From NCBI GenBank assembly GCA_964106645.2, contig OZ067038.1: a stretch of 64,000 bases of DNA; one strand, written 5' to 3'. Of the stretch, positions 14,742 to 53,530 are shown piece by piece. The notes beneath the pieces were generated by a model, which was not told where the DNA came from, did not search any database, and saw nothing but the letters and a program-made list of their open reading frames with translations. The position numbers and the translations under genes were made by a program. The DNA comes from Podarcis pityusensis. Its lineage: Eukaryota. The first letter of the stretch is position 1. Each line of letters starts with the position of its first letter.

Positions 14742-16446
14742 ATGTTGATTTTAGTGTAAGATTTCACTAAAATGCATTATTTTCCTTCCACTTTCAGTTA
14801 AATCTTACATATTGCTTACTGGAATATTTTAATTTTGTGATCTTCCTGTTTCTCATTTTAAGGCTATAAACTCTTCTCACATTATTTAACTTTTACTTGT
14901 CTGACCACATTTCTATTTAATTTGCTCTTTATTGGCTTGCTTTCCATTTTGCATTAAACATGAATAATGCTTCATGAAATGTTGACTGAATTTGATAAAA
15001 AACATTCATATTAATGTTATATTCTGTAAGAGGCCTCTCTGATTTCTGAGAAGCAACCATAGGTTACTTACAGACTAAAAAAGAGCAACTATATCAGGAT
15101 CTAGGATTAACATACAAGTATGAAGGTAAGATTTGGAATTGTCATTTTAGATTTATGTCAAAAATTGTGTTTGCATGATCCATCTATCCAAAGTTACACT
15201 TACAAGAGTAATGTATACTTAAATCAGTATCAGTATTATTTACCTTTGTTCACTAAATCTAAACATCATACATTATTGCACATTATGTTGTAATGGTAAT
15301 TACTCTGGTGTTCATGCTTACCTATAACTCTATAACCTATTTTTTAAAATTCTTTTATTTAACTGTTATATTAACACGCAACCAAACTTGTCTGTGCAAC
15401 TATGCTTGTAATATTTTTTTTTAAATGTAAAAAATCAATAAAAATAATTTCAAACGAAACACAAAAGCAAGATAAATATGTAACTGGGTGAAAGAAATGG
15501 AAGCTAAGGCTTTTAAATGGCTACAAGAGCCCCATGATATTTGAAGCCACAGATTTCTGAACACTTTTCAACACATTCAGTCATGGTTTGGGATCAAATG
15601 TAACAGCTAGTTCTCATTAGATGTCTTAATTTGTTTGCTGAAACTGCAATTTATCATTTGGTAACCACAAGTAAGTACATGTTTCATTTGCACATTAGAT
15701 CTGGTGCAAAAGAAATGTGAGTAATGCAGTTTAATAGACCAATTCAGACTTATGATTCCAAACTGCTACATCAAGAAACTAAATTTGTCACAAAATCTGA
15801 TAACCACTAAACAGAGATAGTAAACCAAAATAAATTATTTGCCTCTAAACAACCATTGAAAGCTGCCTACAACTCTCGGTTAGACCCTACCAGGGCGGCA
15901 GAGCTTTTCAACCTATAGGCCTGTCAAAGGTTAGCATATATAGAACTGCTGTTTATTGTAATTGGAGGCAGCCGTTCATTTATCTTAAGGAAGGTTCTTT
16001 CCAATCGTATGATCAGAGATTTTTTAACTGCAGATGCCAGCAACTGAGCCAAGATCTGACACATGCAAAATAAGTGCTCCACCAATGAGCTATGGTCTCA
16101 CTTCACAAGCCCTCACAGACAGGTTACATGAATAAAAACTGTCTTATGATGAGTCAGACCACAGGTCCTTCAAATCCACTCTTGCTTACCCTGACTGGCA
16201 ACAATTCCCTAAGCCTCAATTGCGGTCTGAAATCCTTTAACGGCCAGGTATTGAACATGGAGTCTTTTGCATGCCAGTCATGTACTTCAACATTCAGCTG
16301 TGGGTTGTCCCTACTGTACAAGGAAAGTTGTAGAAATATCAATGATCGTGATGCACAGTAGCAGTTGGAGAGTTAGTGTCACTTTTGACAACAAATATTC
16401 TCGCCCCCCCTTTTTTTTAGCTGATGGGGCAAGAATTTGATTTGCA

Positions 16447-17596
16447 GGGGGCCACCAGGGGGCGCATTGGAAGATGGCCGACAATAACATCTCTCCGACC
16501 CACACGAGGTAATTAAGAGGCTGCTATGGGAAGTATGCAGCCTTCCCGCCCCCCCAAGGGGATGGGGGGGGACTGCCTTGCCAGCGGTGTCCATAATTCA
16601 CCCCCGGATTCGAAAGAAGGGGGTGTGGACACTTGGCACAAGCCCTTGTGTGAAGTCGGCTCTTCCTGACGCTGTCTCCAATTAGCACACTGGTTGCTTT
16701 GGCTCGAAATATATAATTGGAAATACATAATTGGAAAGAAGCTAAAGCACATACATCAAGCGAGGATTGGGAGTTAAGACTGCTGATTAATGGATCTCTG
16801 TGGGCGGAGCGAAGGGCGGGACAAATAAATCAAGTGATGAATCACCATTAAAAGACTGGTACGTTTGGAGTGAAACGGAAAGGGGGTGGAGGAAAAAACT
16901 TTTCTTTCTTTTTGCCCTATGTGATATTAATAACCCTCCACCCCAGAAAGAAGAATCGTTGCAACTTATTAATCACAAGCAGGAATTTAAGAACTGTGTG
17001 GAGTGAATTATTGATCAAGGAGAGGATTGGTAAACATCGGAGAACGGAGGAAAGTTTTATGACGCAGTTTCAAATGGAGTCTCGCCAAGACAGGCTTGCC
17101 TAAGAAGGACGGGGGGAGGAGGACCAGGGTCATCAGAATGCGAATGATTTTCGGAATGTGATCTAGACCTGGCAGAGCCCTCTGAGATATGTTTGGCAAG
17201 CCTGGGGAAATCAACGGACAGACTGAGGGAAAGTTTTTTACGGAGGTCTGGAAATGGCGTCTGTCCTTATGTGATATAATTTTTGGAGAGTGTAAAACCC
17301 ACACAGAGGATGTTTGTTTTTAAACCGCTTGTGAAGATTATCAGAGATCGCAAAGAAAGGAATATATGATAACAACAAGAAGATGAGAAAAGTAACAAAG
17401 AGACTATCTGGACAGAACTAGATAGAACTGTCTAATTAAATCAGTAATATAAGTGATGTTTGGACCCCTTTTCGGAGCTTGAAGTATGGGTACCCCCAAC
17501 AAAAATTTAAAAATCTGGCTGTATAATTTGGAACTAATGTGATTTGGAAATAATGTGATTTGATTGGCCTGTTAATAAAAATTATATTTAAAAAAA
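16447..17596 (+). mobile_element. Full-length non-autonomous (ORF-less) L1-type retroelement, 1150 bp
   Basis: Perfect 16-bp TSD AAGAATTTGATTTGCA (16431-16446 and 17597-17612). Starts with a G-run and AAGATGGCCG (L1 5' YY1 motif). AATAAA at 17574-17579 followed by a short poly(A). CpG-rich, with no ORF of 100 aa or more. Confidence 0.85.
16452..16480 (+). promoter_or_regulatory. CTCF consensus motif and YY1 motif at the retroelement 5' end
   Basis: CCACCAGGGGGCGC (16452-16465) matches CCASYAGRKGGCRS at 14/14. AAGATGGC at 16471-16478. GC boxes GGGCGG at 16802 and 16814. Confidence 0.65.
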
Positions 17597-18483
17597 AAGA
17601 ATTTGATTTGCAAGTTGAAGATGATTTTGGATCACCAACTGCAGTTGAATCAGCTCACATCTTGACTAAAATTGCAAGCAATGTTACGTGAGTCTTCTAA
17701 CACAAACACATACCCATTCACTTATTATAAGTGAAGTACAAACATCTGCAAAATGTTAAAAAAAACTTTTAAAAAGGAGAGGGAAAGCTCTTTTCAGAGA
17801 TTCATCTGGCAGCTGGCCCACACAAAATACCACTGCTAGTAACAGAGCTGCCTATTCTCCTTGTAAAGACTTCTAATTTGCATATTTAAATAAGTGCATG
17901 ATTGCAATTGTCCATTGCCTATCACTGAGGTTACCTAGCCAATGCTAAAACAAGGCTCATATTATCCTCCTCATTCTGAGCATACATATTGCAACCCTGT
18001 TGTTACATTCCATTTGTATCCAACTCTTTCTTCTTTGAATCTTAGTTATCACCACCTCATCGAATAGATTAAGAGGTAGCAATTGAGGGAGGGCTAGTGA
18101 TTACTCACATCATTATGTATTTCAAAGTGTGCAAAATCTGGATCAGCAATATTATTTGGAAGTATCCTTTGGCATTTGTAGAAAAAGGGCCACGTTATAA
18201 GGTTCTTGACATTTGTCTCTTCCTTGTAACTGCTGTTTTATTATTATACAGCACTAGTCTGGTTATAAACATCAGAGTATTAATAAAGGAAAATAACACA
18301 TGCAAGGTTTACAAACATTATATCTATGTTATACACTTCCTAGCAGTCCTTATTTGAGTTGCCTATTACAGTGAAAGTTTGGGGAACAAAGATCAGCCAT
18401 TATAAATTTGTGCCTAAATGCACTAAGTAAGACGGCTCGTTCCTGCAACATATTGAATACTAGAGCTCAGTTCTAGATGAAGT

Positions 18484-20837: not shown

Positions 20838-21023
20838 GGAGCACCATTTCATTTCTAATCTGCAATTTGGTGTTTTATTCCTTTTAAGACGGCAACACAA
20901 AATACACAAGGTATCATTCTTGTGTGCCTAGTTCATTAGATTGGGCTAGTCTTCCTGAGTTGTATCATGTTATAATTCTCTTCAAAAATATCTAATCAGA
21001 ATAAAGTGTTTGATTCCTTAGCA

Positions 21024-21159
21024 CAGGCATAGGCATACTCGGCCCTCCAGATGTTTTTGGCCTACAACTCCCATGAGCCCTAGCTAACAGGACCAGTGGT
21101 CAGGGATGATGGGAATTGTAGTCACACAACATCTGGAGGACCGAGTTTGCCTATGCCTG
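21024..21159. mobile_element. hAT-type palindromic MITE (same family as 6676, opposite orientation)
   Basis: CAGGCATAGGCA..TGCCTATGCCTG with a perfect 8-bp TSD CCTTAGCA. Confidence 0.92.
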
Positions 21160-21305
21160 CCTTAGCACTGCAGGCATGTTTGACATGTAGATGTGATCTA
21201 CATGCACTTCTGTAGTTCCTGCTCTCTGCCTAGCCAGTCCCCTAGGCACCAACACACATGTGAGACTCATTTTCTTGACGCCTTGTGCTTGATGTCATTC
21301 TATAC

Positions 21306-21441
21306 CAGGCTTCCTCAACCCCGGCCCTCCAGATGTTTTGAGACTACAATTCCCACCATCCCTGACCACTGGTCCTGATAGCTAGGGATCATGAGAGTTG
21401 TAGGCCAAAAACATGTGGTGGCCTGAGGTGGAGGAAGCCTG
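21306..21441. mobile_element. hAT-type palindromic MITE, variant TIR
   Basis: CAGGCTTCCTC..GAGGAAGCCTG with a perfect 8-bp TSD TTCTATAC and the same internal core as 6676. Confidence 0.9.
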
Positions 21442-23585
21442 TTCTATACAAACCCAGAATGGGACTCCCTCCATAGCAACAGAATGCTGGTTAGGCAGGG
21501 TTCCTGTCCTGCTGAAGAAGCCCTATGCATGTGTATTCCACATGTACTTGCACAGAACCCTTCAAAGTGATGCTGAACGTGCAATCTTATAAGAACCTGA
21601 GTGATGTCGTCATCCAGATTAGCGTCCACATTTTCACTGCCCCACTTCATGCATTAAGTACCCACAGAGTACTTGAGGCATACTTATGGTAGGGATTGTG
21701 TCAGCAATCCCCTCTCACTCATCGATGTGAGTGCCCAGGGGTGTCCCTTTTAATCTGGCAAATGCTGTATGCTAAGGAAGTGGCCGAGGCCTGCACTTCC
21801 ATATTGGCCTTTGCAGAATAATGTGGTTTCCCTGAAGTTTTTGCCTGTTGTATTTATAATAGACTTTCATCCAAGCTTGCTTTGTTGGTAACTTTTACAC
21901 TGCTGGGTAACAGTTCTGAGGTGGTAACAAACAGCTTCAGTGCTTGTGTCAGGAGAAATAAAACTGTTATTATTTAAAAAACTTCAAAGGCCACACATGA
22001 ACTCCACAGCTCTGCAGAGTTGTCGTGAATAAAAAACAACAACCAGGCTGTAGAACACCAGGCTGCCCCCTCAACAATAAGCTGTCTTCTCTCCAACTTA
22101 CTTTTGGATTCCTGCCAGTTGCCCATTTGCTTTACACCATCAATTTATATTCACTGAGATGGTGTAAGGTTCTAGAACAGAAATTATTATCAAATTTGCC
22201 TGCCAAACATATGAGCAGCAAAAGCTGGTCTTTCAGAGGCCTTTGTGCACAATCCAAGGACCCAATTCTGTAAATACTTTCTGCTATGTATTCAGTACTT
22301 TTAAAGACTCAGTAAAGTCAAAGGTACTACACCTGCTAGTAAAAAACTAAAAGCAAAGTGAGATTATGATGTTCTTACCTTCATCATTTTAAGTTGTTCC
22401 ACTAGCACTTTTTTTTTTTTAAAGAAAACTCCAGATGGGTAAAAATGCAACAGAATTAGTTAGCATTTGGGGCATTATCCTTTTATTTTATTTTTGTACA
22501 CTAACTGTTTGTCAACATTTATTATCAGTTACAAAATGTGCTATTGTTTTAACAAGTTGCACACTAGAAGAGGTATACTGAGAATACCTCACATGTTTTG
22601 TATGGAGCAATAACCCCTCTGTGTCTGAGGTGAGTCTGAATTCTCTTTTCAAAATGTGGGAAGTCCTGTAAGAATGACAGGTTTCAGTGGAACTATGTGA
22701 TTATACTTTAACAGTGGAGCATTGCTCCACTGAGTTTGAAGGGATTTACTCCTAGATAAGTGAGCATAGGATTTCAGGTTAAGCATGCAGCTTCATCATC
22801 TGAGAGAAGAGATCAGACACATAAATGGCCACAGACAGATCAGAATTTAGCTGGCCATAAGCCAAAACCACTTCCCAAGCCATTTTCCTCCCAGTAGGTT
22901 CTGAGATTAGATATAACCTCCAACACCCGCTACACACACACACACACACACAGGAAGAAAAAACACCTGTGGAGAAGTGGTTTCAAGGGAAAGTGAATGC
23001 AGGAGAATAATTCAGCACCACATTCTATGCTTTAGTTTGTCCCCACACTACTTTAGTGAAATTTTAGCAGGCAGGGTACGCCACCATAAAGTGTAATTAA
23101 AGCACAAGTTGAACATCAGATTGCACTAGAAACAGCAGACTCCAAAACGTAAGTCCACTCCATCCCATTCTCTCTCCTTTTCCAGCCACTTCTGGGTTGC
23201 GGTGATGCACACAAAAAGAGAATTGCCTGTACACAAACAAATCCTTGCAAGATGTGGAGGCTATGCACAGAGTCAAATGTATAACTTGATGTTGTTGTAA
23301 TTTAAATTTGTATGCTGCCCTTTATCCATAGATATCATGGCAGTTTGCAACATCTTATTGTAGATGTGTACAAAGAGCTCTTAGGGAGCAGAATCATTGC
23401 TTTGAGATTTTACTTGGAAAGTTCAGAAATGCAGAGAAGTATGTAGACAAGCCCTTCGGGGACACAGTAGAAAGACAGAGAGGTCTGTTTCGGAAAACAA
23501 GGGTTTTAAGCTAAGTCAGTTCATACTGATGTAGTAGGATACCATTCATGAAAAAGGAATACACCTCTCTGGTGTTGCATCCATA

Positions 23586-25240: not shown

Positions 25241-28200
25241 GAGGAAATACTAAGAAGGGGGGGGGGGACAGTCAGAAGCATCAGAAAGCAATCCAACATG
25301 CAAAGTGGAGGGGTGTCTAGAAATGAAACTACAAAGGTATAGTCACTTCTGGAGTGAAGGAATTCCAGAGAACAGTGTTAATAACCTGGGGCTAAAATGC
25401 TAAATGGCTAGAATGTTCGCTTACTAAGTAAAAGGGGAGTTGCAAGGATTATAGGTATCCATGGAAACATGTGACTGTACTCTAACGGCACCATCCTTAT
25501 AAAAGAGAAAGTGGTTGGACACAGAAATATGGGCAGGCTCTTAGTCCAGGAACTAGGGTAGATACATAGCAAACCACCTTAATAAATAAACCTTTCATTC
25601 TGATAAAAGACTGCTTGCAGGTTCCTTCTAGTAGAGATTACAAAACATTACACCACCTACTGAGAGTCTTATCCTAAGCTTTCCTTGAAAGTAAATGCCA
25701 CTGAGTCCAGAGGGATTTAGTTCCTAATAAGTGTGGTTAGAATTGTAGTCATGTGGCATGACCCTGCTTTGTTTACTCAAAAGTAAATCTGGACACCTAA
25801 TGCTGCAGTCCTAAGCATATTTATCTCCAGCAAAATTGTATCAAACTCACTGGTACTATTTTCTGATTAATTCTAATATAATTTTTTGGGGGCAGGGAAG
25901 CTGCACACATATTTTGCATGGATAGTTTGCATTTGTTTTGATGAAATTCATATCATCAACTTAGTTCAGTTTTGCCATTTAACTTCCAGGATGGTGGGCT
26001 TGATTATTCCATAAACAAGTTTATGTGTTGTACAGGACCTCAGAACCATGGAGACACTTGTCACAGGAACAGGCTCTGTGAATCAATATAACTGCCTCTG
26101 CGAAGCAAACTGTCCTTTAGTTCACAGCTATATAACTGTGACAATACACAAGGAACAAACACAAGAAACATTTCCAAATGTTCTTGTTTCAGCTCATGAA
26201 GGCAGGCTTCAGACTGCTTAAAAACTTGCCACCTGGTGGCTCCAATCATCCCCAGTGAAGCCTGAAGCCTTTAATTACTACCACCACCATTGGACTTAGG
26301 GAGTCCTTACACAAGACACAAATGGAGCTTCTCAAAACTCATGTACAAGAAACTGATTTAATTTCCCCATCTCCTTCTCTTGCTCCAACCTAATATACAG
26401 GATATCAGCTGGAACCAGCACTTGCTGTGATTATGTTAGCAGAAAGCAGCTCACACAACTGATCCTTCTCCTCCTCTTCCCTTTAGCATCCTGAAATGCC
26501 CCTCCAGAAGGTCAGGGGACCCTCCCAAGCAATGAAGTTGTATCACATGGGGCACAGGGGGAAATATGGGGAAGGAAAGAGAAACATCAATTCTGCAAGG
26601 TGTCCTCTGCTCATGCAACTACTGGATACAACAGTGAGTGCCATTTTGTCCCAAATATAGACAGAATCAGGACTGCAAATTTTTTTTGTTTAGTTTAATA
26701 TGAATAAATTACTATAAGCAGTGGATAAGCAGCATGAGCCTATAGTTATAGTTATGAGTGTGATTTACTCCCAAGTAAGTCTACACAGACAGCATGAACA
26801 GAAAAGGGAATTTAATCTCCAACTGTGCCCAAAAATTCAGCCATGCAACTTATTCCTATGCATGTCTACTAGAAGCAAGGCAGACTAGAGTTCAATGGAT
26901 TTACTTCCAGGTGAGAATACAGCCGATTTCAGCTTAGTCATTGTAAGGTCATTCTTGCCAATTCAGATCCTTCCCTGATTATTATTCTCCATAGTAATAG
27001 ACCACATGTACTTCCACATACGACTACATTCACAAAGTGTGGTGGGGCTGTTTATGCCATTCTACCCTATCAGTGCACTGAGGTTGAATCTACGAAGCAC
27101 GATTCTTCATGCATTAATATTCAGCCAAGCACACTAAGAATCCCCCTTCACATTTTCCTGCTCAATGTGGACACTGGGAGTGGGGTTGGCATGTAAGACC
27201 TCTTGCCCCTGCATGTTCTTTGAACACTTGAATAGGACTTATGATATCACCTGGGGTTACAGGCGCTTACCCAGGGTTGGTGTTTCCTTTGGGGAATGAG
27301 GCACAGTAGAGACTGAGGTGTCTTTATGATATATGGCCTATTTACACATATATACAACCTGACCCTACGATGGAGGGCTTCACAGCATTAACACCCCAAA
27401 GGGGTCTTGTTTCTCCCATAGTTGCAGCCTTCCATTCAAACAGAAATCAAAAATTGCTCTCGAATGTTGCCCTAACACTCTCTCCAGCTTGCTGCTTTAC
27501 CTCAAGGTCATATCATTTCACTCACCACTCCAAACTCTGGCTTCATTCTTCTAATTAATGGCAACTATGAGCTGGGGGGAGGGGCCTCACCCATTTGGCA
27601 TCTCACAGAGAGCCTGTTTCCTTTATTTCCCTTAATGGCCCATCACCCAGGCAATTACCTCAACACAGGAAGCTAGCCTGGCATATATGTTAACACTTGC
27701 TGGATCCAGGGGTTAGAAGGATCTTGCATACAGCCTATTTCTTCCCCCTCAAACTCACAGCAATAGTTATTTCCTTTATGAATCACTTCTCATGAAGCAT
27801 CCCAAAGCGATTTACAATATATTACAATCAAAAATCGATTTGAGTTATTCCTTAGACACCAATGAGAAACCTAGATATTTCTGTCTTTGTTTATGAAACA
27901 TATGCAGGTTTATTCAGTACTATGTTACTATACTTAGGATGCCAGCTTTAGATAAATGAAGATCAGGAATTGAGAACTTATGTATAGTACAGCATATTTT
28001 AGTTACATGCCAAAACCGAGTCCATCTTTTTAATTAAAAAAGAAAAGAAAATTAAGAAAAAGGAGGGAAGATCAATTTATTACTTTATTAATATTTATCA
28101 AAAAAATTCTAGTCACACTGGCATCACCATTTCTTGCATGTCAATACAAGTGGCCATACTGATTTCTTCAGCACAGTGTAAGAAAGTGGTTCAGATGAGA

Positions 28201-53091: not shown

Positions 53092-53394
53092 GTAAAAAAA
53101 AAAAAATCTAATAGACCAAACAAAATCCATACATCTTGGCTGTATGTGGCCTGGAAACTGGCAAAGAATATAGTATCCAAGATTCTTAGTTTTCTATTTT
53201 TAAAGGCAACTTTCTAGATCCTTTTAAATATCTGGGAAGTGGGTGCTTTCAGATGTCACAATAAAGTATGATTTATCATTATGGGAATGAGCCTTGGTCT
53301 CCTGTACTCTTTCCTCCCCTCTCTTTCTCTGGCATGGCTTCAAGGAGGAAATTGAAAGCTTTTGCTTCCCTTTATGATTAACCACAGTTTAATG

Positions 53395-53530
53395 CAGCGT
53401 TTCTCATACTTGAGTCTCCAGCTGTTGTTGGACTACAACTCCCATCATCCCTGACCACTGGTGCTGCTAGCTAGGAATGCTGAGAGTGGGAGTAAAACAA
53501 CGGTTGGGGACCCAAGTTTGAGAAACACTG
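53395..53530. mobile_element. hAT-type palindromic MITE, third TIR variant, nested in an older palindromic repeat (~53240-53795)
   Basis: CAGCGTTTCTCATACTTG / CAAGTTTGAGAAACACTG with a perfect 8-bp TSD GTTTAATG and the shared core GACTACAACTCCCATCATCCCTGACCACTGGT. Confidence 0.88.

Follow-up and report, generated by a model that had tools for sequence, protein, structure and literature searches.

Transposon-borne CTCF sites have been documented by ChIP in mammals (PMC3368268), and the B2 element is reported to spread a CTCF word (PMC7786948; PMC3368268). The other system with which the locus described here has to be compared is the 5' end of L1. According to a study of vertebrate L1, the 5' end is the most conserved part of the UTR and begins with a G-run or a factor motif, the mammalian L1 5' end begins with G2-6, and a YY1-type word comes after the factor motif in mammalian and lizard clade 1 L1s (PMC5381506). 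It is also reported that the start position of human L1 is set by YY1 (PMC7778262) and that CTCF supports the promoter activity of human L1HS (PMC6004460). In the full-text literature, with subscription papers, Dfam and Repbase outside the scope of the search, we found no description of the family reported here or of any squamate retroposon that spreads CTCF sites.

The element lies in a window of 64,000 nucleotides from Podarcis pityusensis, which is the whole stretch of DNA that was analysed, and the features to which the text refers are as follows.

5244..5321, minus strand: coding exon of the MEIS2 homeodomain, 11.1 kb from the element (tblastn, 100% to the MEIS2 proteins P0064 and P0104)
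16431..16446, plus strand: left target-site duplication of 16 nt, identical to 17597-17612 and present as a single copy at the empty site of relative X2
16447..17596, plus strand: complete copy of the non-coding poly(A) retroposon, which lies antisense to MEIS2; family copies align with it end to end
16447..16451, plus strand: G-run at the 5' end, variable in length and like that of L1 (0-9, mostly 5-7, in the 68 copies with a called duplication)
16452..16465, plus strand: match to the CTCF core as we take its consensus to be, in forward orientation, with one CpG at motif position 12-13
16466..16470, plus strand: 5-nt spacer, here ATTGG, whose sequence differs by lineage (ATTGG in 61 of 100 copies, different 5-mers in the others)
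16471..16480, plus strand: YY1 word, predicted to act as the start-site element in an internal Pol II promoter (95 of 100 copies keep the 8-mer intact; it matches the YY1 word of L1 5' ends)
16481..16510, plus strand: conserved part of the 5' block outside the CTCF word (0.16 backbone substitutions per site vs 1.24 in the body, a conservation to which the copy-collecting anchors contribute in part)
17574..17596, plus strand: polyadenylation signal and A/T-rich tail, common to the active L1 of the genome (the 16 terminal nt equal the L1 3' ends in loci L062, L067 and L103)
17597..17612, plus strand: right target-site duplication, identical to the left one
26226..26239, minus strand: second CTCF-like site from the core scan, with one mismatch, convergent with the motif of the element and 9.8 kb off

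Positions 16447-16480, the first 34 nt of the element, read as the G-run, CCACCAGGGGGCGC, ATTGG and AAGATGGCCG, and the YY1 word proper occupies 16471-16478, being written AAGATGGC(CG) when it is taken to 16480. All cores were scored against CCASYAGRKGGCRC, which we take to be the CTCF consensus, as a plain consensus word and with no weight matrix. On this scoring the core is perfect at 14 of 14 positions and is separated by 5 nt from the YY1 word, just as a preliminary description of this DNA had claimed. That description had also read this place as the 5' end of a retroelement in a MEIS2 intron, and both readings hold. The element is 1,150 nt long, is flanked by a perfect 16-nt duplication and ends in an A tail, with AATAAA at 17574, and its orthologous site is empty in both of the relatives examined (runs X1 and X2), where contigs bridge it. 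Since neither relative has the element there and the flanks are only 3-4% diverged, the insertion is recent. The MEINOX exon of the host gene is 100% identical to MEIS2-named proteins and 94% identical to MEIS1-named ones, and tblastn places the element antisense in a 79-kb intron, between the homeodomain exons at C1:40135929 and C1:40057321. Two further observations concern the 5' part of the element: a splice-donor-like word at +62 (16506-16514) is kept in most lineages, with no matching joint listed in the RNA of a relative, and the predicted fold of the first 274 nt (16447-16720) is more stable than that of shuffled sequences (z -3.3, 0/200).

When 264 kb of MEIS2 was scanned with at most one mismatch allowed and the CC and GG positions required, three cores were found: a perfect one beyond the last MEIS2 exon and in the same orientation as that of the element, the core of the element itself, which is the only perfect one inside the gene body, and the one-mismatch reverse site at 26226-26239. 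By the loop-orientation convention, loops anchored by a forward core at this place would extend in the direction of the MEIS2 promoter. The MEIS2 introns also contain short palindromic repeats, likely MITEs, at 6673-6811, 10440-10676, 12032-12264, 21021-21446 and 53390-53530. Taken alone, the MEIS2 copy is probably of little consequence.

From base composition about 0.7 exact CTCF 14-mers would be expected per genome; 120 were observed, and the reversed control gave 2. The 27-mer that spans the CTCF core and the YY1 word was found 72 times and its control not at all, and a chance match of the CTCF word was rejected on these counts. An anchor just 3' of the YY1 word had 927 exact matches genome-wide (control 0), which sets a minimum of 927 for the 5' ends of the family; DNA searches with the two ends of the element returned 1,436 and 1,583 first-look candidates. 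When 30 copies were gathered through their 3' ends, 6 of them had no 5' part within the flank retrieved, and insertions interrupted a further 2. The CTCF word is inherited from the founder sequences of the family and is not specific to this copy; a copy-specific gain was rejected, and the preliminary description, for which the family consensus was the place to look, is upheld in this; the family has scattered consensus cores through the genome by the hundred. Strict CTCF cores number 2,605 genome-wide (control 36), and 415 of these are followed by the ATTGG of the family (control 0); the family thus supplies at least 16%, or about one in six, of all strict cores. At least 77 of the 120 exact 14-mers come from the family, namely the 72 above plus 5 from a sample of 39 other sites, in which 9 more lie in a second repeat and 25 in unique sequence; 9 of the 120 were not among the sites listed. 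In mammals bound CTCF sites number tens of thousands. The share of the family among real CTCF sites would be much lower than its share of strict cores, because strict cores are a small part of all bound sites.

Three side observations belong here. The second repeat, which is small and older, also bears the perfect 14-mer, at about 50 nt from one of its ends (loci L113, L114, L123, L126, L131, L140, L143, L145 and L146); L114 shows terminal inverted repeats, and it is likely a DNA-transposon MITE. At another locus (L342, G000:C2:90679117-90679158) an inverted short 5' fragment has brought two perfect cores into a back-to-back arrangement with 9 nt between them. In the relatives X1 and X2 the summed contig depth over 16473-16569 is about 5,000 times that of the single-copy flank, which is not a copy number but suggests that the family is larger in these relatives.

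The copies of the family have the features of L1-driven insertions. Of 85 copies, 68 had a target duplication that could be called, 10-24 nt long with a median of 16; at the insertion sites of these 68, a T or C precedes the cut (position -1) in 53, and positions +1 to +4 are mostly A. The final 16 nt of the element are those of the 3' ends of the L1s of the genome, which holds intact L1s (ORF2 with EN and RT domains; 124 ORF1 matches) that begin like the anole clade 1 consensus. Because of the duplications, the cut site, the tail, the L1-like 3' end and the presence of intact L1, the presumed mobilisation of the family by L1 is well supported by its hallmarks. The element does not appear to encode anything itself: no reverse transcriptase of its own and no long shared ORF were found in the family copies, no Pfam domain matched over the cut-off in the three element frames tested, and coding capacity was rejected, as the short frames of one subfamily are not common to the others. 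A Pol III SINE or a structured RNA family was likewise rejected, since a search of the element found no small-RNA head with A and B boxes, no tRNA and no Rfam match.

Whether the element also descends from L1, as the preliminary description had it, is a different matter. When the proteins of one L1 family were compared by tblastn with 167 copies, no ORF1 or ORF2 homology was seen (best E 0.91); 30 L1 upstream regions gave no match with the element, nhmmer gave no L1 UTR match for two L1 families, and the body compared with two L1 5'UTRs and one 3'UTR gave z of -1.1 to 2.9 over 24 tests vs 23 for an L1-L1 control. At the 5' end, one L1 family carries AGGTGGCGC at +11 and ATGGC at +29, and one element lineage carries them at +11 and +28. 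The shared 9-nt run was reached in 201 of 138,231 shuffles, a post hoc figure for one of four variants and a single element lineage. The L1 derivation is only hinted at by the terminal motifs, no match of the body having been seen to the proteins of the one L1 family or to the UTRs of the two compared. In an intact L1 family (L081-L110) the 3' half of the CTCF core and ATGGC were seen at the offsets of the element among the 26 of 30 5' ends listed. An autonomous partner with the same 5'UTR was looked for in the long copies L061, L062, L063 and L067, which hold later insertions instead; in L062, L063 and L067 there are L1 copies inside the family copies. It was also seen that contig C19 (38 Mb) holds 16 of the 30 best L1 ORF1 loci and four family copies with common flanks; this contig is possibly a non-recombining chromosome with duplications.

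To count variants of the motif, the 927 anchor matches were sampled regardless of the CTCF core by taking the first 100 (contig C1 and the start of C2). The core was perfect in 46 copies, had one mismatch in 15, was one base shorter in 35 and was otherwise broken or cut in 4. The loss of one base breaks the CTCF register, and this short variant has 271 exact occurrences genome-wide. Because 35 of the 100 copies have the short variant while the YY1 8-mer is intact in 95, the CTCF core is, judged from these counts, dispensable to the family. The spacer has taken 4 backbone substitutions in its 5 sites, and no length other than 5 nt was seen in any lineage of the family. A tree of 166 full-length copies consists of several concurrent lineages, and because its backbone is up to 0.6 substitutions per site deep while the tips are mostly only 1-3% long, it suggests that several long-lived or fast-evolving source lineages were active at once. 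The backbone counts, like those of the duplications, were made on 85 of the first 100 anchor copies, the 15 left out all having perfect cores. Backbone substitutions per site were 0.29 in the CTCF motif, where 2 of the 4 counted sit at an indel and may be alignment artefacts, 0.16 at positions 33-64 and 1.24 in the body, the anchors used for collecting favouring part of the first 64 nt. In these alignments, what is shown is conservation of the first 64 nt between lineages as one block, in which the CTCF word is not singled out.

Decay after insertion was scored on the terminal branches of 143 of the 166 aligned copies, chosen regardless of the motif. In inserted copies the decay rate of CpGs is about ten times that of other sites, and from this excess we infer that family copies are methylated in the germline. 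The CpG of the motif had decayed in 14 of 139 cases and CpGs elsewhere in 619 of 4584 (p=0.31), the latter being 63 of 438 within about 120 nt and 556 of 4146 beyond; at non-CpG sites decay was 18/1398 in the motif vs 1912/142931 in the body (1.3% vs 1.34%; p=1.0). With the motif decaying like the element body, there is no sign of a methylation shelter or of host selection on inserted motifs in this test, which sees only germline and only large effects and so rules out full protection, not partial or somatic protection. Low decay of the YY1 word was dropped as a signal of constraint, being an artefact of the copy-collecting pattern. The window copy itself has lost 5 of 35 CpGs vs 27 of 1066 other sites, and the decayed CpGs include +180, +201 and +240. 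Methylation at position 12 of the CTCF motif is reported not to block CTCF (PMC11514455), and the only CpG in the core of the element is at position 12; position 2 is not a CpG. Because this sole CpG is at a permissive position, methylation need not prevent CTCF binding, and for the same reason a methylated site is a weaker refutation than the preliminary description stated.

The bulk RNA of a relative (X23, about 12% read) gave 231 reads that lie on the element, and its flanks received none. Over the 5' part these reads were mostly in one direction (mean depth 41 vs 8), which fits sense RNA if the library is stranded. Fourteen reads extend upstream of 16447, and in the 12% that was read no pile of read starts is listed at the first base of the element; the pattern fits read-through from host transcripts. 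The element has one feature of an L1-type promoter, a conserved YY1 word shortly after the 5' G-run. It seems to us fairly probable that the motifs are the L1-type start block of an element transcribed by Pol II and mobilised by L1, with a dispensable CTCF word and with any effect on the host as a by-product. Pol II would start at the G-run, placed by YY1 as in human L1, and the full-length RNA would carry its own promoter. The poly(A) RNA is inserted by target-primed reverse transcription, as the hallmarks show, presumably by the proteins of the intact L1s of the genome. About 60% of the copies have a perfect or one-mismatch core, and about one third have a broken core and have spread too. 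After insertion the CpGs decay, and the motif decays as the whole element does. CTCF may bind to some copies, as there is no CpG at the blocking position, and their chromatin effects would be incidental. With 5 nt between the words, CTCF might compete with YY1 instead of cooperating with it, an idea that comes from footprint sizes. The MEIS2 copy is a recent and probably neutral insertion.

Against the dispensability of the CTCF word stands a hint from the tree that CTCF binding is beneficial to the element. Both clear backbone substitutions in the motif (C>T at position 5 and G>T at position 9) hit degenerate positions and keep the consensus, and the short-variant clade regained the full register twice, apparently independently (support 0.98 and 0.73; midpoint root); it is because of these two observations that a benefit can be suspected. 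CTCF or its paralogue BORIS would then be used by the element, in that binding at +6 opens chromatin and lifts germline transcription and the motif is selected in the source copies. The literature is in keeping with such a use: the human L1 5'UTR is reported to be a CTCF target whose promoter is less active once CTCF is knocked down (PMC6004460), BORIS makes start sites of clustered CTCF sites (PMC10832218) and is broadly expressed in a lizard (PMC2515639), and CTCF has been proposed as a survival aid for transposons (PMC3368268). We consider it unlikely all the same. Short variants make up 35 of 100 copies and the tip lengths of their lineages resemble those of the others, CpGs at or near the motif are not sheltered, and the two register returns could be explained by slippage in the G-run or by the uncertain midpoint root. 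BORIS, moreover, is reported at clustered sites, and the element is without a second good core, the next best having 3 mismatches. The opposite possibility is that the match is incidental, the G-rich start block being read by another factor and the copies sitting in silenced chromatin, never bound. The L1 family that has AGGTGGCGC, the 3' half of the core, at +11 has 3 mismatches to the CTCF core in its 14-mer, which favours this, as does the tenfold decay of CpGs; but the word is strongly over-represented outside the family too (25 of the 39 other sites are unique sequence, against 2 sites for the reversed control), the commonest CTCF words are reported to be the best bound in mammals (PMC3368268), and a methylated position 12 is reported to leave CTCF able to bind (PMC11514455). 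An incidental match is in our judgement quite improbable.

The preliminary description also claimed a mobile insulator or looping cassette, and this we could not sustain, considering that the YY1 word is at the L1 start-site position, the short lineage is abundant, the motif shows no constraint in inserted copies and the MEIS2 copy is young and missing from both relatives. Its form at this locus would be a copy co-opted by the host, which binds CTCF, stalls cohesin and re-partitions the MEIS2 enhancers in a lineage-specific way. The perfect core, the sole one in the MEIS2 gene body, and the convergent site 9.8 kb away are what such an insulator would be built from, and MEIS loci lie in conserved regulatory blocks that are depleted of CTCF sites and SINEs, where a new site could matter (PMC5585340). 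The same depletion argues that a functional new boundary is more often removed than kept; besides, the insertion is missing from both relatives, there is no family-wide constraint on the motif, the CpGs at +180, +201 and +240 have decayed in this very copy, and the YY1 word is already explained by the start block. Co-option by the host is thus very improbable indeed. The start block with a dispensable CTCF word is what we prefer, and to the wider proposal, that this is an active lizard retroposon with a methylation-tolerant CTCF site in its promoter, which spreads bound CTCF sites and whose recent insertions, as in MEIS2, are species-specific loop anchors, we would give only little credence. 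In this family hundreds of young insertions retain an intact core and hundreds of sister copies are one base short, and together they amount to a natural controlled experiment, which could show whether a new CTCF word gets bound, alters 3D contacts or aids the element. If the family does spread bound CTCF sites, it would be a non-mammalian case with the short-variant lineage as a built-in negative control.

Compared with known systems, the family is like the rodent B2, dog and opossum SINEs in being a lineage-specific retroposon with the CTCF word in its founder and over-represented genome-wide. Those SINEs are short, with binding proven by ChIP and up to >10,000 sites (PMC3368268), whereas the lizard element is 1.15 kb long, is without Pol III boxes, has the motif at its extreme 5' end, and has hundreds of sites and putative binding. 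In the L1 start block as described in PMC5381506, the mammalian form is G2-6...CAAGATGGC (YY1) and that of lizard clade 1 is GACTTCCGG...ATGGCG. The element shares with L1 a G-rich start, a factor motif and a YY1-type word within 30 nt, together with the same 3'-terminal signal and insertion hallmarks, but it has no ORF1 or ORF2 and its body cannot be aligned to the two L1 5'UTRs tested. In the upstream slot it has a CTCF core where L1 has CTTCCGG, presumably an ETS-like motif. CTCF and YY1 sites are also found together in one retroelement promoter region in human L1HS (PMC6004460). L1HS is autonomous and its binding is measured; the lizard element is non-coding, with a perfect core 5 nt before YY1 and putative binding. 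HAL1 and plant Sadhu are long non-autonomous elements mobilised by L1. Like these and SVA, the element is non-autonomous, polyadenylated, flanked by target duplications, not tRNA-derived and likely a Pol II transcript, and unlike them it has no VNTR, composite structure or ORF1, a distinction drawn from descriptions. Squam1/Sauria, Squam2 and Squam3 are short tRNA-related SINEs. These too are non-autonomous retroposons of squamates, and the lizard element differs from them in its length of about 1.15 kb and in having no tRNA head. The family is not a classical SINE and, on sequence so far, is not assignable as an L1 derivative or an insulator, and it looks unusual as an element that is long, non-coding and not tRNA-derived and yet has an L1-type start block.
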